A stretch of 64,000 nucleotides of DNA, from the NCBI GenBank assembly GCA_026417575.1, contig JAOACZ010000128.1:5127-69126 (forward strand). The letters are read 5' to 3'. Positions 1 to 21,810 of the stretch are shown in pieces. Under the pieces are notes generated by a model. That model made no database searches. It was not told the origin of the DNA and saw nothing but the letters and a program-made list of their open reading frames with translations. Within the stretch, counting starts at the first letter, position 1, and every line of letters begins with the position of its first letter. The DNA is from a bacterium (GTDB lineage Bacteria; Auribacterota; UBA3054; JAPLST01). A program made the translations under genes and the position numbers.

Positions 1-350
1 ATAAGAAAGTTGGTCCAGAAGGGCACGATGGTGAGGAGTAAGAGCGCATTGCGCAGGCCCGGCGTCGCCCGCGCAATGTAGTATGCCATGGGAATAGACA
101 GCACCAGTGAGATTAAGGTGGCTGCCGCACTCAGCCAGATCGTGCGCCAGATAATTGCCGGGTAGTTGGGATTGGCCAGGTGGCGCAATGTCTCGAGTGT
201 CCAGCCTGGGCCGAGTCCGCCATACATGTCTGCTGGCTTAAAGGTCATGGCAAAGACGATCAACGTGGGAACACAGAATAAGACCGAGAGCCAAACAAAC
301 GATGGTGTGGTGACCAGAATTTCATGGAGAGTGCGGCGAGAGGGAGCCAT
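1..350 (-). CDS. potB: Spermidine/putrescine ABC transporter permease PotB. Only the 5' part lies in the window; the gene continues past coordinate 1.
   Basis: Minus-strand ATG at 350 gives MAPSRRTLHEILVTTPSFVWLSVLFCVPTLIVFAMTFKP...LLLLTIVPFWTNFL, a typical PotB N-terminus. The ATG lies immediately 3' of the potA stop. Confidence 0.7.
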   Translation of the reverse strand, partial: MAPSRRTLHEILVTTPSFVWLSVLFCVPTLIVFAMTFKPADMYGGLGPGWTLETLRHLANPNYPAIIWRTIWLSAAATLISLVLSIPMAYYIARATPGLRNALLLLTIVPFWTNFL

Positions 351-351
351 G

Positions 352-1536
352 TTATACCTCCGCTCGCGGCGGCGCTGGTACCGCGCCATTTTGGCCCACT
401 TCTTCGGGTGGAGTCTGGATCAGCAGTTCGTCAGCTTCGCTATAACGCTCGAGCATGTAGCCATCATCAGCGTGCCACCAAATCCAGACGTCATCTTTCC
501 AACGAATGGGTTGTTCGTCGAGGAGAAAGCGGCCATGTTGTTGCGAAATCGCCAGACGATATTCATCTACGCGCACCCAATACTTTGTGTGCGAGCCGAG
601 ATAGATAATGTCTTCCACATTCGCGGAGATGAGGTTATAGCGCCCGTCTAGCTGGGGGCGCTCGCGCGAGATACGGAACTTTTCTGGCCGCACACTGAGG
701 TAGACGAGGTCGTTGACCTTCATCTTTTTATCGTTGAAGCAGACCACAGAAGGGAATCCGTCAATCTGCATTAAAATGTAATCATCATTGATAATCTCGG
801 CTACGCGCCCCTCGAAGAAGTTGGTGTCGCCGATGAAGGCGGCTACAAAACTACTGCGCGGCGCTTCGTACACTTCTGCGGGGGTACCGAGCTGCTCAAT
901 GCGGCCCTGGTTCATCACGGCGATGCGATCACTCAAACTCATCGCTTCGCCTTGGTCGTGTGTGACGTAGAGGAAGGTGATACCGACCTGGTCGTGGATG
1001 AGATCGAGTTCGATCAGCATGCGCTGGCGCAGCTTGAGATCTAGCGCAGCCAGGGGCTCGTCGAGAAGAAGCACGCTGGGTTTGTTGATCAGGGCGCGGG
1101 CGATGGCAACACGTTGTTTCTGCCCGCCGCTAATCTGGTGGGGTTTTTTGTGGGCGTGTTCTTCCATTTGGATGAGCGCGAGCATGCGTTCTACTTCATT
1201 GAAAATTTCGCGGCGTGGCCGCTTGGCGACGCGCAGGCCAAAGGCAATGTTTTCCCAGACCGAGAGGTGGGGAAAGAGGGCGTAGTTTTGGAAGATGGTA
1301 TTGACCTGACGGCGATTGGGCGGGAGATCGGTGATATCTACGCCATCGAGATAGATTCGTCCCGTGTCGGGTATTTCGAAGCCGCCGAGCATGCGAAGCA
1401 GGGTGGTTTTGCCGCAACCACTCGGGCCGAGAAGTGAAAAGAATTCGCCACGGCGCACGCCCAGGGAGACATGATCCACGGCGCGTAAACGGCCAAAGGT
1501 TTTGGACACGTCAACAAATTCGAGGAACTCCGCCAT
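352..1536 (-). CDS. potA: Spermidine/putrescine import ATP-binding protein PotA
   Basis: 394-aa ORF with Walker A GPSGCGKTT, ABC signature SGGQKQRVAIARAL, Walker B LLLDEPLAALD and a C-terminal TOBE-like domain. Confidence 0.85.
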   Translation of the reverse strand: MAEFLEFVDVSKTFGRLRAVDHVSLGVRRGEFFSLLGPSGCGKTTLLRMLGGFEIPDTGRIYLDGVDITDLPPNRRQVNTIFQNYALFPHLSVWENIAFGLRVAKRPRREIFNEVERMLALIQMEEHAHKKPHQISGGQKQRVAIARALINKPSVLLLDEPLAALDLKLRQRMLIELDLIHDQVGITFLYVTHDQGEAMSLSDRIAVMNQGRIEQLGTPAEVYEAPRSSFVAAFIGDTNFFEGRVAEIINDDYILMQIDGFPSVVCFNDKKMKVNDLVYLSVRPEKFRISRERPQLDGRYNLISANVEDIIYLGSHTKYWVRVDEYRLAISQQHGRFLLDEQPIRWKDDVWIWWHADDGYMLERYSEADELLIQTPPEEVGQNGAVPAPPRAEV

Positions 1537-1564
1537 GTACGTGCTGCAGGTTCCGTACGGGTAC

Positions 1565-1656
<92 letters not shown>

Positions 1657-1706
1657 CGCCGTTCTGCGGGAGCGCCGCCGCGCCGGCGCCCACAGCCCAA
1701 AACACA

Positions 1707-1782
<76 letters not shown>

Positions 1783-1820
1783 ACGCGCGCTCGTCAAGCG
1801 TTGTCCACTACAAGAAATGC

Positions 1821-1849
1821 ATTGTAGCAAAAAGCGACGGTGCTGTCAA
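1821..1849 (-). promoter_or_regulatory. Sigma70-type promoter for the tRNA-Lys/tRNA-Ser transcription unit
   Basis: Minus strand reads TTGACA (1849-1844), a 17-nt spacer, then TACAAT (1826-1821), about 35 nt upstream of the tRNA-Lys 5' end. Confidence 0.6.
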
Positions 1850-2388
1850 AGTCCAAAAGTGCGTAGCTGGTGTTTTTTTGCCGTGAACCGATGAGCACTA
1901 GCGATGTGCGTACTGATAAGTTCCGTGGCGCTTTCCTCGAGCAGGCTTGAAGTGAAGCGTTCTTTAGTACTCCCACGTGCATGCTACCCGTGTTGAATCC
2001 GCGCAGTCCATGTTCCTCAGGCGAGACGGCGCGAGGCGTGGAAGGCAGTACATTACCTGAAACGCGTTCATTCGTATGGCACGGATGGACCATCACCGGC
2101 ATCGCTTGCTCACCCAGCTGGGCGAAGAGTTCGTCCGCCCAAGCGACGTGCTGGTGAAGATTTCAATCGGCTGGTGAAATAAACATGCGTTCGTGTTTGA
2201 GATTCGCGGGGGTGTAAGGTTGCGCACGGAAAAAAAGTGCGCCAACGCGCGGGTCGTTCCCAGCACCATTCAAGTGCGGGCACTGAGGTTCTGGAGACGG
2301 CTGGTGTGACTGCCGCGTGCTCTCCGCAGAGCTCGCTTCGAGAGTCTTGCCGCAGAAGCGCGCGGGTTCCGCTACATCTTGGGGGGAC

Positions 2389-2417
2389 TTGATTTTTGAA
2401 CCACAATGTGCTACACT
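2389..2417 (+). promoter_or_regulatory. Sigma70-type promoter (TTGATT-17-TACACT) about 230 nt upstream of xerD
   Basis: TTGATT at 2389-2394, 17-nt spacer, TACACT at 2412-2417, predicted TSS near 2424. Confidence 0.5.
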
Positions 2418-2537
2418 ATACGCACGATGGCGAGCGAGATGCGGCATCCTTAGATGGATACACGACAAACAGCAAGTCCCTCCTCCACAAACCGATATCC
2501 ATGGCCGCATCTCAACGCTCAACATCATTCAGCCACC

Positions 2538-2585
2538 GCGGCTGGGAACGTCACCCCCAGGACAAGTACCAGCCGCTTTTTATTT
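2538..2585 (+). terminator. Candidate intrinsic terminator or attenuator hairpin followed by a U-run
   Basis: GCGGCTGG (2538-2545) pairs perfectly with CCAGCCGC (2569-2576) around a 23-nt loop, followed directly by TTTTTATTT (2577-2585). It lies 60 nt upstream of the xerD ATG. Confidence 0.35.
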
Positions 2586-2645
2586 CTTCGTGACGCGCGC
2601 TACCGCGCTTCACGCTCATGACGTCTCGCAGGCGAGCGCTTTCGC

Positions 2646-3569
2646 ATGCCAACGCCCGCTCACGAAAATCCGCTCCACACCGCAGTTCGCCAGTTCGTCC
2701 TTCATCTTCAGCTCGAACGTGGGTTGGCGCGCAACACCTGCCTGGCTTACGAAAACGATGTGCGGCTCTTCGGCGCGTTTCTGGCCCGGCATGGTATCAA
2801 TGCCTGGCACGAGGTCACACCTGCACATATTACTGACTTTCTCACCGAGCGCCATGCTCTCCGGCGTAGCGTGAATACTGTTTTGCGCGAGTTAATTGCC
2901 TTGCGCGTGTTCTTCCGATATCTGGTGCAAGAGAGAACGGTTCAGGAGGACGTGACCGCACGCGTGGAAGCACCTAAAGTGTGGCGTCTATTGCCAGAGG
3001 TGCTGAGCGAAGGGGAGATGCAACAGCTTCTGACAGCGCCGGATGAGCGCACGTGGCGTGGAGCGCGAGACAAAGCCATGCTTGAGTTGTTGTACGCGAC
3101 GGGTCTGCGGGTGAGTGAACTTGTGACCCTACGACTAGGTGACGTGGATTTGGAGAGCGGATTCTTGCGGTGTCGCGGGAAAGGCGGAAAAGAGCGTGTG
3201 GTTCCGATTGGCGCGCCGGCACGTGCGGCGCTGCGAGCTTACCTGTCATGGCGCGGATCGGGAGCGGGAGCCGAACCCCTTTTTTGTACCTCACGGCATA
3301 CAGCCATGACGCGTGTGAACTTTTGGAAACGCATTACTCAGTATGCAAAAAGGGCTGGGATTCTCAAGGCCGCGCATCCACACATCGTGCGCCATTCCTT
3401 TGCCACGCACTTACTTATGCATGGCGCTGACTTACGCGTGGTACAGGAGCTTCTCGGGCACGCAAACATCACGACCACGCAACGATACACGCACGTGGAC
3501 CATCAACGTTTACGCGCTGTGCATCGCCAATTCCATCCCCGTGCGCGCTTGCCGCGCGGTGAGGTATGA
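2646..3569 (+). CDS. xerD: Site-specific tyrosine recombinase XerD (chromosome dimer resolution)
   Basis: 307 aa with near-identity to XerD over the catalytic domain: LLYATGLRVSELV, GKGGKERVVP, HxxRHSFATHLL, LLGHANITTTQRYTHV. Confidence 0.8.
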   Translation: MPTPAHENPLHTAVRQFVLHLQLERGLARNTCLAYENDVRLFGAFLARHGINAWHEVTPAHITDFLTERHALRRSVNTVLRELIALRVFFRYLVQERTVQEDVTARVEAPKVWRLLPEVLSEGEMQQLLTAPDERTWRGARDKAMLELLYATGLRVSELVTLRLGDVDLESGFLRCRGKGGKERVVPIGAPARAALRAYLSWRGSGAGAEPLFCTSRHTAMTRVNFWKRITQYAKRAGILKAAHPHIVRHSFATHLLMHGADLRVVQELLGHANITTTQRYTHVDHQRLRAVHRQFHPRARLPRGEV

Positions 3570-3679
3570 GGGAAAGGCAAGCCCTCGTCAGCGAGTGTTT
3601 TGACACAGATGCGAACGTCGGGACAATGCCTCGTGGCGAAATGAACATTTGTCGTGAGGGTGGGAAAGGTGCCTTGGAT

Positions 3680-4759
3680 TCATTGATTTTTGACGACGTC
3701 ACTGAACGTTCTCTTTTTCAGGCCGTGATGGGCGACGGGGTCGGAAGCAAGAGGAACGCGTGTTGCAGCTACCATGGCCACCACGTTAGCAGGTTGCGTG
3801 TTTGGGAGCATGGCTTTGTGGCTGGGACCCACAATGATGCGTTCAGCACACGCACGCCGGAGCTCGCGCAGCGCTGCCGTGACCTCGGCAGATGTGGAAT
3901 GAACCAGCAGATCCTGCGTGTCCACCCCGCCCATAAAGACAAGCCGCGAGCCAAAGCGGGCGGCCTGGTCGGCGGGAACCATCCCCTTGGCACGTGTTAG
4001 CATGTGACGCTGGCAATCCACACCAGCTGCAGTCGGCTCGTCAATGTGTTCGCTGATAGCGCCGCATGAGTGCGGGGCTAAGACATACCCGTGCGCGTGT
4101 GCTTGTGCGGCAAATCGCGCATTCCAGGGGCGGAAGAAGGCGCGAAACACCGCGGGTGACATTAATAACCCAGTTTGCGTGCCGAAATCATTGCCCATGA
4201 AGCTGGCATCCATGCGCACCAGCTGCGCGATAGAACAGTTCGTTGACATCGCAGTAGAAACTGCACATTCGCTCGAGCGCCGCGTTCACCACGTCTGGCG
4301 CGAGGAGGAGCAAGGAGAGCAAATCTTCCGTGCCAAACAAATAGCACAGGTCATGAAAGAACGGTGTCCAGAGGCCACTCATGCGATAGTAGGGCCCGCA
4401 GGCGTCGAGGTGGGCAGGCGTCTCGTTAAAGTCGAGGTAACGAGCGTCAGGGAACGGCAGGTATCAACATCACCACGGTAGCGGGCAAAAGCCCTTTGCG
4501 CGCTAAGCCGTGGGAGGGTAGCTTCTCACCAGGGGCGCATGCTCATACCGGCGGGGTGGCTATACGTGGAAGCAAAGTGCTGCGGGCCGATCCAGCACAC
4601 GTTATCGCCCAGAAATTGCAGAAGTTCTTCGAGCGAGGTGCTGCCGAGCACGGTATGAAGCGTGGCTTGGATTTCTTGGGGAGGGCACCCGAGCCAGAAA
4701 GCGCAACGCTCCACCGGCACGCCAGCGATGAGGGCGTGCACGCGCGCACGGGGCGTCAC
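3680..4759 (-). pseudogene. Uroporphyrinogen-decarboxylase (URO-D/MtaA) family gene broken by frameshifts
   Basis: Three consecutive minus-strand pieces in different frames (4759-4526, 4382-4188, 4249-3680) each match successive parts of a URO-D family protein. The last piece carries FMGNDFGTQTGLLMSPAVF...LVFMGGVDTQDLL. Combined length is about 360 aa. Confidence 0.6.
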
Positions 4760-4801
4760 GCGAGTCCTCCTACCGAGCCCCGCTGCAGCGCGGAGATTTC
4801 C

Positions 4802-5691
4802 TCACGCCAGTGACAGGAGGGGATCGTGTCGGGCTTGGTGAGCGAGAGCGTAGCCGCCGCGTGCTCGAGGCGCAATGCCGCCGCCAACTCCATGCTTTCC
4901 GCAAGACCACCCCGATAGGCCGCCGGTAAACGCATCGCCAGCACCCACGGTATCTACCGCGATCAGGGGCCAGGTCGGCACGCTCACCGGCAACATGGAC
5001 ATGCTCTTGTAGCCACAACGGCCTGCCGCGTCTTGTGTGGTAACCACCGCCCGGCATCCAAGCGCCTGCAAGCGCCGCATCGCGGTCACCAAATCATCCC
5101 CCGACATACCCGCGCACACTACTGTTTCCGTTTCGTTCGGCGTGATGATATGAGCGCATGACAGATCACAAGTGGAGAGATCATGAGCAGGTGCAGGATT
5201 AAAGATCGTTTGCGCGCCGCACACCTCACCTAAACGCATTGCTGCCAGTGCGGCTCGAGATGAGTGTCAAGCTGCGTGATGATGACCACAGCATGCTCAA
5301 ACAGCTCACGCTGCGCCGCCAGATCATCCGGTGTCAGCGCACTATTTGCGCCCGATGACGGCAATGGGATTGTGCCGTTCGGTGTCCACGATGATGAAGC
5401 CCACACCAGTAGGTAAGTCTGCATGACGTTGCACGCCGCGAGTGGCTATACCTTCGTCGGCCATCAAGCGAAGCATGGCGTCCCCGTAGGCATCGTTGCC
5501 TACCGCGGCAATAATGCAGTGGATGCGCCCAGACGTGCTGCTTGTGAAGCCTGGTTAGATCACTTGCCGCCAAGCACGGCGCGAAATGAATTTCCAATAA
5601 CGGTTTTGCCGCTCACCGGCAGGCGTGGTATTTGGATGACTAGGTCCGTTGCATAGCTGCCCACGACGAGGATGCGTGCAGAAGAGGACAT
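4802..5691 (-). pseudogene. PfkB/ribokinase-family sugar kinase gene with an in-frame stop and frameshifts
   Basis: N-terminal piece MSSSARILVVGSYATDLVIQIPRLPVSGKTVIGNSFRAVLGGK runs into TGA. A second frame continues IIAAVGNDAYGDAMLRLMADEGIATRGVQRH. The C-terminal piece at 4802-5239 carries the PfkB signature AVDTVGAGDAF. Confidence 0.65.
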
Positions 5692-5866
5692 AAAGCAGCT
5701 CATTTACAGCTTACTGCAGCGCACGGGAAAGCTCACTCCAGTTGCTTAGCATGCGCGTTACCCAGCGCATGTGAGCGGAGGACAGGGCGGGAGACAACGG
5801 CATCAAGATCGCCGAGCGGCTGCGCAGGCGCCATATACTCCCGCCGCTGCCGGTGCGTCGCACACA

Positions 5867-8800
5867 TCAGCGTAACTCCACGTCCACGCGGGCCACCTCA
5901 CCTGTGCGCAAGCGCAGAGCAAGCTCAGTTGGTAGCCAGGGGCCCGCCACCGTGCAGGTGCTACCGTCGCGCATGCGGACGTGATACGTTGCCGGCGTAA
6001 CGGCGCGGGGCCCGAAAGTCGCGCGTCGTTGCGGATTGTGATAGACGAGGAGCGTGCCACCCAGAATGACGAACGCGCAGGCGTGCGCAGGAATCGTCAC
6101 CGTTTGCCTGCCCTCTAACGATTCCCACGTGCGCGTGACGGCGCGCCGCGTAAACAATTCCGCAGGAAGAATCGGTTGGAAACGCGCACGCAGCGCCCCT
6201 TGTGCGTCCAGAGAAAATATCCGCGCCGCGCCGCTCAGCTCTAACCACATACTGATGAACTCTACCGTTGCCCCGCTCAAGCGCGCGTAGAAACCGGTAC
6301 CATGAATGCGCCGATCTTCGTGCGCACTGCTGGCGATGAACGACGCATGCTCAAGCGGACTACGCCCGTAGCGCTGCGGCGGCTGGTAGGGCACAAGCGC
6401 GTCACGCGCCACAGCAAAAAATTGCTCGTATAGACCAGCGCGGAGCAGTGCAAAGAAATACTTGTACTCCATGTGCATCCACACGGATTGATTTTCGAGC
6501 CAGCCGGGCGGAAAGATATTTGCGCGGCCGATCTCCTGTGTGATCCGCGCCAACGGCGCGTTGAGCACGAACATGCGCAAGGTGCGGTCGTAGAGCGGGC
6601 TGCGAAGCACAGCTCGATGCAGCGCACGTGCTGCCGCGGGTCCCTCCAGCACATACATTACGCGCACCTGCGGCTCAAGAAACGGCGGCAAGGTTACGCG
6701 CGTGAACGACTCAGGCCAGACACACGGATGCCCGTCATGCCGACGCGGCGCACCGTCTGGGCCAGGGAGGACGCGGTACTGCGTCACGTTATAGAAAAAA
6801 TATCCGTGGTACAAGCCAGTGCGCTCGTCTCGGGCGCGGCGAATGGCACTCTGCAGCACCGTTTCCCACATTGCAAGCGTTTCTTGCAATTCATCCATGG
6901 TAATCGTTGTCGTCGCGCCGTCAACGCCGAGCCGCGTGTCAGTCAAGTAACGCTCCAGAGCGTCGTTACGCGCATGCCAGCGCGCGAGCGCTGTAGCGGA
7001 CGCATCCCACGAGGCTCTGAGATCGCGCACCAACTCTGCCAGTTCCACGCAACAGCTAATTCCACCGTGCGCCGGCAGGTGCGCGTGCAAAAACCGCACC
7101 AAGCGGAGTAATTCAGCCGTCTCGTTAATTGAAGAGCCGATAAGCCCCGGGAGGCCATTGAGGGCGTCGTTCCACCCCGGCCTGTTGCCACGCATTTCCA
7201 GCCCAAGTTCTTCAGGATCAAGCAAAGCCATCTTCACCGCTACCACGGAGAGAATCTTCTCGGACAACGTGGTGCGGTAGACCACGCCCTTGCCGTGCTC
7301 GGTGCGGACGCATGTCGGATCGTCTCGCCGCGCTGCAATTAACGCAGCTTTCTCAGGGTCGCGGGTGAGGGCATTGTGTTGGCGCACCACGCCACGCGCT
7401 TCGTCCAGGGTAAACCGCGTGTCGCGCGGCAGCATTATTTCGGGATTATCGTGATACGTATAGCTGCAGTCTTTAAAGAGAGCTGCAGCGGCGTGATCAG
7501 GATACACGGCGAGGTAATTTTCGAGTAAATCGAGGCAGTAGACCCAATGGTCAGACCAGTAGCCGTCGCTCCCTCCGAAGCGATCCACGCGGCGTGCGTG
7601 CGCCAGTAGGGTTGCAAGGACCTGCGGCGGGGGAAGTTTCTCTTGTAGCGCTGCGCGGGCGAGCTCCCCTGGTGTCGTGAGTGCGCCGGCAAATTTTGTT
7701 GCAAGTGTGCGGAGCTGCGCAGGCAGCGCACGTGTAGGCAGATCTATTGGGAGCGCGAACGCGGTGCCAAGGTAGACCAACGGATTGTTGCCATCCAGCT
7801 GGAGCGCGTTAAAAAATGTGCGCACGTTGGTCAATTCCACCGGCGGATGAAAGAGCACATCAGCGCGGCGATTCTGATTGATGTCGCGATAATTCGCATT
7901 GCCCTGAGAGTAATAGGCTGGCTCGAGCGCGAACCAGTTGTAATCGCGTTCCATGTCGCCATGCTTGCGAAAATAGAGATGAAAAATTTGCCGCCCCAGT
8001 GACACAGGGAGGCCACCACGCAGGACATTATCCAAATATGTTTGGCGGCAGTAATAGTCGAAGGTTGGCTGGGATGTCACCGTCCACATGCGGTCTTCAA
8101 TTTGGGCGATCAGACGCGCATTTTCGTCGCGCTTTTTGGCAAGCCAGTCTGGTTTTGCGAGCAGGGTCCGCAACCGTGTTACGTCGCGCGGCGCAGCGAC
8201 ATTGCCAACACAACTGAACCAGGTGCAACTGCTTCCTGCAGGCAGGTTCCGCGCAAAGCAAGCAAACGCACATGGCATAAACCCACGCGAGCGGAGAGCT
8301 CCGCGCCGCACCCGCCCATCGCGTGCCACCCAGGCTTGCGGCATATGCAGATCTCCGCCCTCATCGAAAATCTCGCGCGGATCGCCAATCATCTGCACCT
8401 GCGGTTGCCCCGCGCCCGTCACCACCGTGGTCAAGTAGTTAAAGGTTGTGTTGAAATCCGGCGTGACGGTGTCATAGTGAATGACGCGTGCGCGACTCAC
8501 CAGTACTCCCGGCGCTGGCGTGAGCGTCTCAATCACCCCAGCCTCCGTGTTGCTCATGTGCACATAGTCAGCCACGCACACACTGCCGGGGACAAAGCGC
8601 GCCACACCGTCCGCAATACGTACCAGCCGTGCTCGCCGGCTCGTGTTGGTAAGTGTCACCCAGCGCACCAGGGCGCCCCACGGCATTTGCGGCAGGGTAA
8701 AGTAAAGCACATGCACCCGCCACCCTAGCGACGGGTTGTCATCTTCAATCTCCAGCTCATGTGCGCGCACCCACAGGGTCTGTCGCGCTCCTTTCGCTCC

Positions 8801-9443: not shown

Positions 9444-10172
9444 ATGGATCGTTTCTTTTGGCTCGCTCCATGTGCTCTGCTTCCCTTTAGTGCCAACGCC
9501 GCAGCACCCTTCCCCAGCGATGACATCACCACATCAGTAGGTGTGGTGCGCATTTCGTTCCTGGGGCACGGCACCCTCATGCTCACGCATGGTCAAACGG
9601 TCATCCACGTGGATCCGTTTGGGCAGGTGGCTGATTACGCGTCGTTGCCCAAAGCCGATCTTATTCTCATTACACACGAACATTTCGACCATCTCGATCT
9701 GGCCGCAATCAAGAAAATTCGTACCGACAAAACGGCCATCATTGCTCCACCCATCTGTGCGAGCAGCCTGCCTGAAGCAATCCTGCTGCGCAACGGCGAG
9801 CACACCACCAAAGCCGGTATTGTCATCCACGCCGTGCCGGCGTACAACATCAAGCATGAACGTGCGCCTGGCAAACCGTTCCACCCACGCGGCGTGGGGA
9901 ACGGCTACATCCTCACCTTTGGTGACACTCGTCTTTACATCGCCGGTGATACGGAAAACACACCCGAAATGAAAGCTCTGACCAACATCACGGTCGCTTT
10001 TCTCCCAATGAACTTACCCTACACGATGACACCCGAAATGGTTGCCGACGCGGCGCGGGCATTCAAGCCAAAAATTCTCTATCCATATCATTACGGCGAT
10101 ACAGATCCAACACGGCTGACAAAGCTGCTGAAAGACACGGGCATTGAGGTGCGGATTCGCCCGATGCGATGA
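9444..10172 (+). CDS. Secreted MBL-fold metallo-hydrolase
   Basis: 242 aa with an N-terminal signal peptide (MDRFFWLAPCALLPFSANAAAP) and the metallo-beta-lactamase motif HEHFDHLD. Confidence 0.7.
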   Translation: MDRFFWLAPCALLPFSANAAAPFPSDDITTSVGVVRISFLGHGTLMLTHGQTVIHVDPFGQVADYASLPKADLILITHEHFDHLDLAAIKKIRTDKTAIIAPPICASSLPEAILLRNGEHTTKAGIVIHAVPAYNIKHERAPGKPFHPRGVGNGYILTFGDTRLYIAGDTENTPEMKALTNITVAFLPMNLPYTMTPEMVADAARAFKPKILYPYHYGDTDPTRLTKLLKDTGIEVRIRPMR

Positions 10173-11650
10173 GCAGCGCCACGGTCATTTTTCCGCACCA
10201 GTTGTTCGCAGACCATCCCGGGTTAGATCGTGGGCGGCGCATCGTTCTGGTTGAAGATCAGCTCTTCTTTCGTGATTGGCGGTACCCCGCGCGGTTTCAC
10301 AAGCACAAGTTGATCCTCCATCGCGCGAGTATGCGCGCCTACGCCACCCTGCTGCGCCAGCGTGGCTACGATGTCAGCTACCTTGAGTATGCGCCGGACC
10401 GCGAAATGTCCTATTTGTTTGCGCCTTTGCGCCGCGCAGGTGTGACTGAGATAGTCGTCGCGGAGGTGTGTGACTTCATGTTGGAAAAACGCGTGCGCCG
10501 CTACGCTAGGCAACACGGCATACGCATTACCGAGCTGTCGTCCCCTGGGTTTCTCACCCCACGTGATTGGCTGCTCAACCGACTACAAGGCAAGCAGCGC
10601 CTCAGCCTGACATCTTTCTACATTGCTCAGCGCAAACGTATGGGCATCTTGTTGGATAACGGCAAGCCACGCGGCGGCCGCTGGACGTATGACACCGCGA
10701 ATCGCCAACCGCTGCCCAAGAACCTTCCTGTTCCCCCACTTCCAACTATCTCGCCCTGCCCAGAGGTACGCGCGGCGATAGCCTACGTCACTCAGCACTG
10801 GCCTGACCACCCGGGTGAACCGTCGGCATTTTGGCTTCCGATCACACACGCAGCTGCAGCACAATGGCTCCAGCACTTTCTAGAACACCGTGTGATGCTG
10901 TTCGGCCCTTACCAAGACGCCATGCGTCGGGAGGAGCCTTTCCTCTTTCACTCAGTTCTCTCACCTCTGCTCAACATCGGCTTACTCACGCCCACCCAAG
11001 TGCTCGAGGCCGTGATAGCCGCCGCGCGTGAAAAGGATGTACCCCTTCCATCATTGGAGGGCTTCATCCGTCAGTTGATAGGTTGGCGTGAATTCGTCCG
11101 CGGCGTTTATCTTTTGCACGGCGTACGCCAGCGCACCAGTAATCACTGTGCTTCCACGCGGCCTATGCCAAGCGCGTTCTATCACGGAACTACGGGCCTC
11201 CTGCCCTTTGACACTGTCGTCGCGCGCGTGCAACGCCTGGCCTATTCTCATCACATTGAACGACTTATGATATTGGGGAACCTCATGCTGCTCTGTGGCA
11301 TTCATCCTGACGCAGTTTATACCTGGTTTATGGAGCTGTTCCTGGATGCCTACGATTGGGTCATGGTCCCAAACGTGTACGGCATGAGCCAGTATGCCGA
11401 TGGTGGCTTAATGACCACAAAACCCTACGTGTGCAGTTCACGCTATATCCGCAGGATGAGTGATTATCCTCGCGGTGCCTGGTGTGAAGTGTGGGATGCG
11501 CTCTACTGGCAGTTTATTGATCGGCAGCGCGCCACCCTGGAGGGCAGCCCGCGCACCGCAGTGATGCCGCGCATGTACGATCGGTTTACACCTTCGCGCC
11601 GAGCCGAGCTTGCACGCAAAGCAGAACAATTTCTCGCGCAGCTTACGTAA
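10169..11650 (+). CDS. Cryptochrome/photolyase-related protein (COG3046 'deoxyribodipyrimidine photolyase-related', CryPro-like)
   Basis: 493 aa. The C-terminal FAD-binding photolyase-like region reads LFGPYQDAMRREEPFLFHSVLSPLLNIGLLTP. Its ATG overlaps the upstream stop in an ATGA junction. Confidence 0.6.
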   Translation: MSSATVIFPHQLFADHPGLDRGRRIVLVEDQLFFRDWRYPARFHKHKLILHRASMRAYATLLRQRGYDVSYLEYAPDREMSYLFAPLRRAGVTEIVVAEVCDFMLEKRVRRYARQHGIRITELSSPGFLTPRDWLLNRLQGKQRLSLTSFYIAQRKRMGILLDNGKPRGGRWTYDTANRQPLPKNLPVPPLPTISPCPEVRAAIAYVTQHWPDHPGEPSAFWLPITHAAAAQWLQHFLEHRVMLFGPYQDAMRREEPFLFHSVLSPLLNIGLLTPTQVLEAVIAAAREKDVPLPSLEGFIRQLIGWREFVRGVYLLHGVRQRTSNHCASTRPMPSAFYHGTTGLLPFDTVVARVQRLAYSHHIERLMILGNLMLLCGIHPDAVYTWFMELFLDAYDWVMVPNVYGMSQYADGGLMTTKPYVCSSRYIRRMSDYPRGAWCEVWDALYWQFIDRQRATLEGSPRTAVMPRMYDRFTPSRRAELARKAEQFLAQLT

Positions 11651-19974: not shown

Positions 19975-21810
19975 CTAGTCTGCTTTTGCTGGCTCCAAGC
20001 GTGCGGGGCTCAACTTGTAGAGGGGAACATGCGCTTTAGCAGTCTGCATGCTCTTTCGGCATACTGCGTGTCTCCGTTGGAACGTGCGCATGAGCAGAAG
20101 GCAAACGCCACAGAGGAGCACGTGACCCGGCTCGGGGATATCGCCCACAAACACAGCGCTCATCGGCCCCCAGTTGCCCAGAGCGTCTTGACCGCGCACA
20201 TATACCAGCGCCTCCGGTCCGCCCAACATCGTGCTGTCCACATAGCCCACGACAGGTTCATAGACTGAGTCAAATGCTCCATCGGCGGCACTCATGGGAA
20301 TTGGCACCACCTGGGGATGAGTGAATGGAAGCAAAGCGCACTCTGCAGCGGCGACGAGATTGCTTCCCGTGCCGCGCTCGTCAATCACGGCCGAAACAAC
20401 AACCATGTTGCTCGGCGTCGGGACGAGTTCGAGCGCCAGCGCATCAGGCCCGGCAACTAACATGTATGGCGCGCGGGCGATCTTCGCAGCATAGATGAGA
20501 GCGCCGCGATTGGTCGGCCACTGGTCAGCATCAATGGCACTGTATGCCGGCATGAACGAAGTGCCCACTTCGAAGGTAAAGGCTGGAATACCGAGCTCGC
20601 CGTAGGCCCAATCCGTGCTATCACCGCTGGTCGAGTAAAGCGACGTACTGCTTTGACCAGCGCGGTAGCGATTGTAGCGTGCGAACTTTAATCCGATGGC
20701 GCGGAGCTCATTTGCATTCGGCGCTGGCGCGGCTGTGTCGCCCCACGGCCACAGGACGTAACGGCCGTAACTATGCAGCGAGATCAATAACCCGGTGGTG
20801 TTACTCGGGGCAGGGTCAGTGAGCAAAGGACCGCGCTGATCGGGAATCAGATTAGTTACCAACGCTTGCAGGGCGGCCACTTCCGGCTCTGACGCAGGGG
20901 CTGTTCCGCAGTAGACAAGACTACACGGAGCGGTGCTAATGCCGACGGTGCCCCAATGAAATGAGTGGTTGCGATTAAGGTCAATCCCATACTGGGCCCA
21001 GTCATCGGGTGGCCATGCGCTACAGCGATCCTGATGGGCATTTTTACGCTGCATGAAGGGCGGGCCATTAAAAGGCGGCAGCGTGCCGAGCGAGACGAGC
21101 CAATGTGCTTCGGGATTAACTAGTGGCACAATCCATGTTTCTTGTTCGTTGACAAGCCACGTGGCGTCTGGATCGTGTCCGTAGCCTTCAAGGAGCCAGT
21201 GCGCGAAGCGGATGGCCAATTCGGGCGTGGTAATTTCACGGGCATGAATTGCGGCCATCAGGAAGAAAACGGGCTTGGGGCCCGGCGTGTTGGTGGCGGT
21301 GATGCACAGGGCAAGCAGGTCATGCAACTCTTGTGTTTGCCCGCCTGGCGTTACGGTGCCACCTACTGACTTACAGTAGGCGTCGCCGTAATCAACGAGC
21401 CGAGCTAGGTGAGGGTAGGCAGCTGTCAGCGCGTTCAGGTGAGCGACAATCTCCTGCGCGGTTTTGTAGGCACCGTAAAACTCCTGCGGTGCGAAGCCCG
21501 CCGGCCGGCGCATAAAACGCGCCTGCGGGTGGGTTAGCTCGGCACTGCGTTCAGCGTCAATGCTCACACGCCATCCTTCGGCTTCCAGTTGAGCCAGCGT
21601 GCGGGGAGAGGCCGTGACGAGGACGTATCCCTCCTCGCGATCATTGAATTCATGCACATCGTAGCGTGCCACCAGGTCCTGCAACGCCGCCTCGGTCGGA
21701 TAATAGACGCGCGCCACGTAGAGCGGGGGCAGCTGTACGAGTTCTTGCTGCGCTGCAGCGACGAAGACGTTCAGGAGTAGGGCATAACCGAGGGCAAGGG
21801 AACACCTCAT
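19975..21810 (-). CDS. Secreted M14 zinc carboxypeptidase with a PEP-CTERM-like C-terminal signal
   Basis: Signal peptide MRCSLALGYALLLNVFVAAA and M14 motifs HAREITT and DLNRNHSFHWG. The C-terminus reads IPEPGHVLLCGVCLLLMRTFQRRH followed by about 30 further residues. Confidence 0.7.
   Translation of the reverse strand: MRCSLALGYALLLNVFVAAAQQELVQLPPLYVARVYYPTEAALQDLVARYDVHEFNDREEGYVLVTASPRTLAQLEAEGWRVSIDAERSAELTHPQARFMRRPAGFAPQEFYGAYKTAQEIVAHLNALTAAYPHLARLVDYGDAYCKSVGGTVTPGGQTQELHDLLALCITATNTPGPKPVFFLMAAIHAREITTPELAIRFAHWLLEGYGHDPDATWLVNEQETWIVPLVNPEAHWLVSLGTLPPFNGPPFMQRKNAHQDRCSAWPPDDWAQYGIDLNRNHSFHWGTVGISTAPCSLVYCGTAPASEPEVAALQALVTNLIPDQRGPLLTDPAPSNTTGLLISLHSYGRYVLWPWGDTAAPAPNANELRAIGLKFARYNRYRAGQSSTSLYSTSGDSTDWAYGELGIPAFTFEVGTSFMPAYSAIDADQWPTNRGALIYAAKIARAPYMLVAGPDALALELVPTPSNMVVVSAVIDERGTGSNLVAAAECALLPFTHPQVVPIPMSAADGAFDSVYEPVVGYVDSTMLGGPEALVYVRGQDALGNWGPMSAVFVGDIPEPGHVLLCGVCLLLMRTFQRRHAVCRKSMQTAKAHVPLYKLSPARLEPAKAD

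Follow-up and report, generated by a model that had tools for sequence, protein, structure and literature searches.

A conserved, predicted non-coding RNA directly upstream of xerD in a small uncultured bacterial clade

In the 64-kb stretch of bacterial DNA analysed here (contig JAOACZ010000128.1, hereafter the window), the interval immediately upstream of xerD, which encodes a site-specific tyrosine recombinase, appears from sequence comparison to encode a real, strongly conserved and previously undescribed non-coding RNA of about 150 nt that occurs in a small uncultured clade. An initial annotation had noticed a promoter and a hairpin here by eye and proposed a transcript acting either as a small RNA (sRNA) or as an xerD attenuator; that call has now become a comparative result, an RNA that evolves more slowly than the gene beside it. 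The reading we favour, with a probability of roughly one half, is that the RNA is a clade-specific structured leader of xerD that would end at an intrinsic terminator, giving both a short RNA and a read-through xerD transcript.

Results

The interval upstream of xerD is conserved from a promoter to a hairpin

We compared the window with metagenomic contigs that encode XerD proteins 57–74% identical to the window XerD (found by homology search), and obtained seven distinct RNA sequences in six lineages, all from metagenomes: the window itself (G1), L088 (G2), L087 (G3), L081, L082, L083 and L096 (G4), L084, L085 and L086 (G5), and L091, L092 and L094 together with the variant L095 (G6). A BLAST search of the whole spacer between tRNA-Lys and xerD against the relatives' upstream regions returned one block only, 2374–2586, at 82–85% identity. 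Among G1–G5, with the close pair L081–L084 set aside (RNA 93%, xerD 92%, hairpin-to-ATG spacer 71%), pairwise identity was 79–88% in the RNA block compared to 63–77% in the adjacent xerD coding sequence (67–81% at the protein level), indicating that the RNA evolves more slowly than the neighbouring gene. Identity was 12–38% in the spacer between hairpin and ATG, whose length varies from 31 to 89 nt across lineages, and about 13–38% in the 200 nt upstream of the promoter; by these figures both flanks are at the level of unrelated sequence. Conservation starts about 15 nt 5' of the -35 element, drops over the first ~8 transcribed nucleotides, resumes at GATGG and ends at the T-run, so that its boundaries coincide with the promoter and the U-run. 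The roughly 160-nt non-coding unit suggested by the initial annotation corresponds to the only conserved part of the 863-bp spacer, bounded by the promoter and terminator proposed for it, and conservation in the relatives places this promoter-to-hairpin interval beyond chance.

The predicted window promoter is of the sigma-70 type and lies on the forward strand at 2389–2417, the position first given for it, with TTGATT (2389–2394), a 17-nt spacer and TACACT (2412–2417); a TG at 2409–2410 makes an extended -10 element (TGcTACACT), and transcription is inferred to start near 2424. Every relative has an orthologous promoter of the form TTGAC[T/A]-17-TA[C/T][A/G]AT with the TG, matching 10–11 of 12 consensus positions, always with a 17-nt spacer and at a constant distance from the RNA core. 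Directly 5' of the -35 element is a conserved box, ACATCTTGGGGGGAC (2374–2388, forward strand), that may be an operator or activator site. Within it ATCTTGGGGGG is invariant in G1–G5, sequence further upstream is unalignable, and the box is not conserved in G6.

At the other end of the block, hairpin P3 (2538–2576, forward strand) pairs GCGGCTGG (2538–2545) with CCAGCCGC (2569–2576) in eight perfect base pairs, seven of them G-C, around a 23-nt loop, GAACGTCACCCCCAGGACAAGTA, which itself holds an inner 3-bp GTC/GAC helix; its folding energy is -18.5 kcal/mol. The T-run TTTTTATTT (2577–2585, forward strand) follows the window stem immediately and would supply the U-tract of a predicted intrinsic terminator, for which P3 has the expected GC-rich stem but not the expected short loop (3–8 nt). 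The sequence thus contains the perfect 8-bp inverted repeat and T-run, 60 nt before the xerD ATG, that had been reported, and the hairpin, whose conservation in relatives had been named beforehand as a test of the proposal, is present in all six lineages. A run of at least five T lies 0–5 nt after the P3 stem throughout G1–G5 (offset by 3–5 nt in L088, L084 and L087), and nothing downstream of it aligns; G6 has a C-run instead. G6 retains the promoter and the 3' half of the RNA, with 81% identity from CCACAGCCGATATCCA through the hairpin, and has a different 5' half that includes an extra hairpin.

The 60-nt spacer between terminator and xerD (2586–2645, forward strand) is unconserved and has no recognisable promoter or Shine-Dalgarno sequence. 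The xerD gene follows on the same strand at 2646–3569 with its ATG at 2646, and its 307-aa product, which contains the Pfam domains Phage_integrase and Phage_int_SAM_1, is 100% identical to NCBI MCX7847558.1 ('site-specific tyrosine recombinase XerD'). A consensus scanner run over the window called neither the promoter nor P3, because the promoter matches at 8 of 12 positions, under the cut-off of 9/12, and because the 23-nt loop exceeds the 8-nt limit of the terminator search (loops of 3–8 nt); the window copy is therefore unremarkable by motif strength alone.

Several relatives have short repeats between the hairpin and the xerD ATG. Three TAGGAC/TAAGAC repeats at 8–9-nt spacing occur there in G4 and G5 (L081 3957–3979, L084 3960–3983), L087 has one TAGGAC right after the T-run, and L088 has a 17-nt tandem duplication (GTGTGCCTACGTGCTTT twice, 375–408). 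AGGAC is also found inside the invariant P3 loop, and repeats of the AGGAC/TAGGAC type may be a protein-binding motif.

The block is predicted to fold as an RNA with two hairpins

The interval 2424–2588 folds better than its shuffles on the plus strand (z = -4.39, with 0 of 200 shuffles as good), compared to a minus-strand z of -2.84. From the seven sequences RNAalifold predicted three helices, P1, P2 and P3, arranged as two independent hairpins with unpaired ends. P1 and P2 make up a long imperfect hairpin of ~100 nt at the start of the transcript that presents a 35-nt loop. The P1 5' strand (2426–2445, forward strand; GATG, GAGC(G) and GAGATGCGGC) pairs in three segments with 2504–2526 in both the minimum free energy and the centroid structure; this 3' strand (forward strand; GCCGCATCTC aac GCTC aa CATC) is also a candidate anti-terminator that could pair with 2538–2545. 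P2, which is part of the RNAalifold consensus, joins ATGGATA (2454–2460, forward strand) to its perfect 7-bp complement TATCCAT (2496–2502, forward strand), and TATCCA is invariant in all seven sequences. The enclosed 35-nt loop, CACGACAAACAGCAAGTCCCTCCTCCACAAACCGA (2461–2495, forward strand), is C/A-rich and G-poor and contains CCCTCCTCC. Its core, ACAAACAGCAAGTCCCTCCTCCACAAACCG, is invariant in G1–G5, L088 having a 1-nt deletion just 5' of it, and the G6 counterpart of the loop is a related pyrimidine tract, CCTTTCTTCCACAGCCGA. A conserved 11-nt linker (2527–2537, forward strand), ATTCAGCCACC in the window and ATACAGCAACC in most relatives, separates this hairpin from P3.

Standard pairs occupy 90% of the alignment cells in these helices, versus 28–48% when the 3' partners are slid by 1–3 columns, and the covariation score is 0.154, versus 0.02–0.09 for the slid controls. 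The comparative alignment and covariation analysis that the initial annotation had called for thus yielded a conserved block with compensatory changes in P1, where one pair (alignment columns 43–124) goes from C-G to U-A, and in P3, where a stem pair (columns 150–182) is G-C in five sequences and A-U in two (G6), with one G-U. The innermost pair flanking P2 is, by our reading of the alignment, U-A in L087, G-C in L081 and L084, and a mismatch in the window and L088. Ten cells hold G-U pairs, which on the opposite strand would be C-A mismatches; since they fit the plus strand only, this points to the plus strand as the transcribed one. The stems vary and the loops are nearly invariant, the 23-nt P3 loop differing at only three positions across the six lineages. 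Covariation from seven sequences should be regarded as supportive, not statistically decisive. The 3' half of the G6 RNA keeps the P1 3' strand without its 5' partner, and its fold has z = -0.78.

An alternative pairing could form between TGGCCGC (2502–2508) and GCGGCTG (2538–2544), with equivalent hairpins of -10 to -14 kcal/mol in G1 and G3–G5; it is different in L088, lost in G6, and shows too little variation for covariation analysis. Two other elements suggested by eye were dropped as unsupported: an extracytoplasmic function (ECF)-type promoter in the P3 loop (GGAAC-N16-GTA), and a pairing of the P3 C-run with a G-run upstream of the -35 element, which lies elsewhere in the G6 promoter.

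The interval has no shared reading frame

The initial annotation saw no convincing open reading frame (ORF) here and the comparison agrees, with no frame shared across lineages and no Pfam match for any ORF of the spacer, so far as sequence can tell marking the interval as non-coding. In several lineages an ORF of 44–72 aa overlaps the block, yet no such ORF is shared by all of them. Frame-breaking indels (a 1-nt deletion in L088, a 4-nt deletion in L087, and a 1-nt insertion in L081 that is identical in four independent contigs) leave the peptides with unrelated C-terminal halves after the first ~15 residues, the frame common to the window and L084 lacks a start codon in L081, and in the near-identical pair L091/L095 the longest frame is open in L091 and interrupted by a stop in L095. 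Against this, the overlapping ORFs themselves (such as a 55-aa ORF at 2454–2621 and a 65-aa ORF at 2396–2593) could be taken for a small protein gene, and most of the few P3 substitutions fall in one codon phase by our own count on the alignment; we treat the latter as chance because there are only ~10 substitutions and the frames are broken elsewhere. A leader peptide, MASEMRHP (2427–2453), would gain from an AUG that lies ~3 nt from the inferred start in G1–G5. The short 5' ORF is 8, 8, 6 and 6 codons long in four lineages and open for 72 codons in L087, and the mini-ORF varies at first and second codon positions, covarying with the opposite strand of P1, which speaks against a peptide. We find a coding function of either kind hardly credible.

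The RNA was found only beside xerD

In all six lineages the RNA lies 31–89 nt upstream of xerD on the same strand. Its upstream neighbour is tRNA-Lys in the window, a metallo-beta-lactamase-fold gene in G4 and G5, an 86-aa ORF and pdxJ in G3, and an STN-domain gene with its own terminator in G6, and xerD is followed by URO-D on the opposite strand in the window and G2, by a tRNA and efp in G3–G5, and by an NPCBM-domain gene in G6. As the neighbours differ on both sides, the RNA and xerD are the only unit kept together. The pair of metallo-beta-lactamase-fold (242 aa) and DPRP (493 aa) genes that adjoins the RNA in G4 and G5 (L081 1218–3424) is found in the window at 9444–11650, 7 kb downstream and inverted, indicating local inversions around the RNA-xerD unit. 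A scan that recognises near-consensus sigma-70 sites only detected no further promoter in the stretch from P3 to the ATG, either in the window or in the relatives. In G6, where no U-run follows it, the hairpin stops 31 nt short of the ATG (38 nt if measured from the conserved loop pattern), so the RNA there is most simply the 5' untranslated region of xerD.

Wider searches added few copies. R1, a covariance model of the RNA, was run over 938 kb that included the whole window and 80 distant xerD loci and found the known copies only, with a single copy in the 64-kb window. GTDB representative genomes scanned with XerD gave relatives of at most ~50% identity, none with the RNA; the source lineage is absent from that set. 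A homology search with AhcY told little about taxonomy, with ~77% identity to many phyla. A scan of JGI metagenomes with the P3-loop pattern gave five loci and one new sequence variant; a scan of viral contigs with the same pattern and BLAST searches of plasmids and phages gave no match to the RNA. Of the XerD homologues, P0013 has no DNA sequence, P0016 lies at a contig end, and P0014 and P0018 lack the RNA, a different gene being the immediate upstream neighbour of xerD; the latter arrangement is also that of more distant relatives.

Two sister lineages, L104/L105 and L089/L090 (XerD 62–64% identical), are without the RNA. L104 and L089 have a similar promoter, TTGCCT-17-TACAAT with CTGTGCTACAAT, followed by unrelated leaders; its distance upstream of xerD is ~200 nt in L104 and less in L089. 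Compared with L089 (2973–3090), the L104 region (2272–2500) has an extra insert of ~110–135 nt with three strong hairpins (GGGAG...CTCCC twice, GGATGGAGGC...GCCTCCATGC), which may be either a small repeat that was inserted or a leader element of another type. In L089 (2818–2874; GCA_026398485.1, JAPLST010000228.1), a stretch of N ~100 nt upstream of the xerD promoter precedes ACGTGTGCTCTTCCGATCT, which we take to be Illumina adapter sequence; the two together are probably an assembly or scaffolding artefact.

The RNA resembles known kinds but matches no known family

By eye, the interval had matched none of the signatures of signal recognition particle (SRP) RNA, RNase P RNA, transfer-messenger RNA (tmRNA) or 6S RNA, and the searches bear this out. 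The Rfam scan that had been recommended (Rfam 15, 4227 models) returned two tRNAs only over the whole window at gathering score and, over 1700–2750 at E up to 10, the tRNAs plus three snoRNA-type chance matches of 14–16 bits, none of these being a match to the RNA; no Rfam 15 match overlapped the RNA in five relatives' loci, and ARAGORN over 1–8000 found tRNA-Ser and tRNA-Lys only, with no tmRNA. Our literature search found no xerD leader RNA or xerD-linked RNA apart from STAXI. We therefore describe it, on these comparisons, as an apparently new RNA family of a familiar kind, one that matches no described leader or riboswitch family.

The kind in question is the terminator/anti-terminator leader, a group that includes riboswitch-terminated leaders acting in trans, such as Listeria SreA/SreB. 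Like these, the RNA has a promoter, a putative structured 5' leader and a predicted intrinsic terminator shortly before an ORF on the same strand; linkage to one gene is strict; an upstream segment might pair with the terminator's 5' arm; and G6, which keeps the element without a U-run, recalls expression platforms that differ between lineages. In contrast to riboswitch, T-box and ribosomal-protein leaders, it has no Rfam 15 match to any such family. The terminators of known riboswitches are normally free to vary, whereas here the terminator hairpin, including its long 23-nt loop, is the most conserved part of the RNA.

Among sRNAs, the cuckoo/CcsR/alpha-r14 family has two to four adjacent hairpins of 24–50 nt, each with CCUCCUCCC in a 9–27-nt loop, and Staphylococcus RNAIII and RsaE-type sRNAs have UCCC/CCCC loops that target ribosome-binding sites (RBSs) (PMC4615179). 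Our RNA would likewise be a promoter-to-terminator unit of ~150 nt, its loop-exposed CCCUCCUCC shares 8 of 9 bases with the cuckoo motif, and, as in sRNAs with C-rich loops, a second C-run lies in another loop. However, the host uses few Shine-Dalgarno sequences, and G6 has CCUUUCUUCC in place of the motif, paired internally. We rejected membership of the cuckoo/CcsR family, as a single CCCUCCUCC lies in the 35-nt loop of a ~100-nt hairpin, the second hairpin is without the motif, and there is no Rfam match.

Two other systems combine a structured RNA with a recombinase. STAXI (Ssbp, Topoisomerase, Antirestriction, XerDC Integrase; Weinberg et al. 2010) consists of tandem small pseudoknots, often with UUCG tetraloops, near genes of mobile elements (PMC2864571). 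It is similar in being a conserved structured motif near XerDC-type integrase genes, but our RNA is single-copy, has another architecture, lies beside a chromosomal xerD and has no Rfam match. The bridge (seek) RNAs of IS110/IS1111 are encoded just upstream of the recombinase gene (PMC11208158). The window RNA, too, is structured, falls in the ~150–180-nt range and immediately precedes, on the same strand, the gene of a site-specific recombinase. However, the loops of bridge RNAs vary with target and donor DNA while the loops here are invariant, Pfam and the best hits mark the recombinase as an ordinary XerD, and neither signs of mobile elements nor matches to plasmids or phages were found. 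The recombinase partner of a bridge RNA is of a different kind from the tyrosine recombinases. The resemblance is positional only.

The surrounding sequence

The spacer upstream of xerD starts at tRNA-Lys (1707–1782, reverse strand), beyond which lies tRNA-Ser (1565–1656, reverse strand), both called by ARAGORN. A near-consensus promoter on the reverse strand (1821–1849; TTGACA, 17 nt, TACAAT, with a TG; 11/12), ~40 nt upstream of tRNA-Lys and tRNA-Ser, presumably drives both of them and explains the spacer's first ~70 nt. Positions 1783–2373 gave no nucleotide match to any compared locus, translated matches at chance level, and ORFs without a Pfam match. The initial annotation was right that the spacer is long, at 863 bp, but the RNA does not explain its length: the ~520 bp at 1850–2373 are empty, with no conserved sequence and no significant translated similarity to the compared loci, and probably reflect the rearrangement that brought the tRNA genes here. 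The relatives have 300–1000 nt of unassigned sequence upstream of the RNA, in which L082 and L083 have a called ORF of 76–79 aa with no Pfam match.

Downstream of xerD, a tRNA is found in G3–G5 (L081 4922–4993, L084 4922–4993, L087 4921–4992), followed by efp and a tRNA-synt_2-domain gene, perhaps epmA, which encodes the EF-P lysyl-transferase. In the window and L088 this place is taken by URO-D and PfkB, on the opposite strand. In the window these URO-D-family and PfkB-family genes (3680–4759 and 4802–5683, reverse strand) contain three and at least five in-frame stops, respectively, and a garbled middle, while the L088 orthologues are intact (338 and 294 aa); the broken genes are pseudogenes or else reflect local errors in the assembly. 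A further gene common to the window (19975–21810) and L081 encodes a peptidase M14.

Most of 37 putative long-ORF starts in the window lack a Shine-Dalgarno sequence, and several (for example 21810 on the reverse strand and 26704 and 30434 on the forward strand) have a -10-like TATACT/TATAAT a few bases before the start codon. This pattern suggests that leaderless or very-short-leader mRNAs may be common in the window organism.

Discussion

Both halves of the original two-way proposal, sRNA or attenuator, find support, and the genomic context favours a leader of xerD without deciding the choice. Under the leader reading, the conserved promoter would start a transcript near 2424, most copies of which would stop at P3 and the U-run near 2580, leaving an RNA of ~150–160 nt, while a fraction would read through into a low-level xerD message; read-through is invoked as the source of that message because no other promoter is recognisable before xerD. 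The P1 3' strand (TCCAnnGCCGC) resembles the 3' arm of the terminator and could pair with the 5' arm GCGGCTGG. If a factor (protein, small molecule or RNA) acting on the invariant loops were to open P1, the terminator would be disfavoured and read-through would be set by the competition between pairings, a layout equal to the classical 1:2/3:4 versus 2:3. The near-invariance of the loops suggests that they may contact a protein, a ligand or an RNA. The terminated product might also accumulate and act as an sRNA, the two roles being compatible. We count in favour of the leader the recurrence of the candidate anti-terminator in G1 and G3–G5 and the strict linkage to xerD.

Several observations weigh on the other side. 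The window terminator looks efficient, with eight GC-rich pairs and an immediate U-run, and would suit a free-standing sRNA gene. The candidate anti-terminator is weaker than P1 and P3, is lost in G6, and involves GC-rich 5–8-mers that may match by chance. An expression platform alone would not usually have a loop as invariant as that of P3, and G6 has kept the 3' half without P1, so that pairing with the 5' half is not the sole reason for its conservation. A TACACT lies 13 nt upstream of the L081 ATG, and xerD may have a promoter of its own in the spacer, either weak or dependent on an alternative sigma factor. The window genome appears to use short or absent leaders, and the searchable literature contains no precedent for leader regulation of xerD or xerC.

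Some of these same points would be expected of an independent trans-acting sRNA gene with its own promoter and terminator, next to xerD by inherited gene order only, with the invariant loops (CCCUCCUCC in the 35-nt loop and CCCCC in the P3 loop) as seeds pairing with G-rich mRNA sites and CCCUCCUCC and CACCCCCAG as candidate target-pairing motifs. The strong conserved promoter and the canonical terminator of the window copy fit such a gene, as do a U-run kept in all of G1–G5 though the following sequence is free to vary, an unconserved spacer between RNA and xerD, and long invariant unpaired stretches on variable stems; C-rich loops that look like anti-Shine-Dalgarno sequences are a known signature of RBS-targeting sRNAs (PMC4615179). 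However, the G6 copy has no terminator and runs into xerD, the RNA is never found apart from xerD despite rearrangements on both sides, and only a single copy lies in the 64 kb of the window, with none in 938 kb of sequence around other xerD genes. The Shine-Dalgarno sequences that such loops would target are absent at most of the 37 putative starts, loop pairing with the 37 start regions of the window was no better than that of shuffled seeds (33% of shuffles as good), and near-complementary 13-mers, although in excess (7 versus 1.4 expected), lie inside genes or antisense, not at starts. We regard a free-standing sRNA as the main rival reading, possible but less likely than the leader.

Conservation that reaches into the untranscribed box 5' of the -35 element and the promoter spacer, and a G6 3' half conserved without its RNA pairing partner, could also be read at the level of DNA, as a long operator/promoter region or as a site at which the adjacent tyrosine recombinase recombines; in some Xer systems with a single recombinase, dif lies beside the recombinase gene, and the symmetric change in the P3 arms would preserve a DNA palindrome as well. 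Yet a protein-binding site would be far shorter than these ~150 near-invariant bp, the dif core ATAAT-N-TATATTATGT finds no match in the window even with three mismatches allowed, the distance between the P3 arms is 23 bp and not 6–8, conservation ends exactly at the U-run, and the ten G-U cells and strand-asymmetric folding fit RNA and not duplex DNA, all of which makes a DNA element very unlikely. We consider it extremely improbable that the RNA is a divergent housekeeping RNA (6S, small SRP or similar) missed by the Rfam models. Its length (~150–165 nt), strong promoter and very high conservation in a lineage without close reference genomes would suit one, but the window copy has no Rfam match up to E = 10 and the five relatives' loci have none over the RNA, its two separate hairpins with unpaired ends are neither the 6S rod with a central bubble nor the hairpin of SRP domain IV, the 5' domain is lost in G6, where the RNA reads on into xerD, and the sister lineages lack the RNA at the locus.

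A closer functional tie to the recombinase is conceivable though improbable, in which the RNA would be either a new class of sensing leader, riboswitch-like or protein-responsive, that gates xerD, and with it chromosome-dimer resolution, according to some signal in the cell, or, more radically, an RNA partner of XerD, placed like the bridge RNAs of IS110 recombinases just 5' of the gene; the nearly invariant 35-nt and 23-nt loops would be the surfaces that touch a ligand, protein or nucleic acid. If the favoured reading is right, and the RNA is a leader locked to xerD in this uncultured lineage, it would give a first case of a Xer recombinase controlled at the RNA level; if not, it would add a new family of sRNAs from a lineage without reference genomes or known regulatory RNAs.

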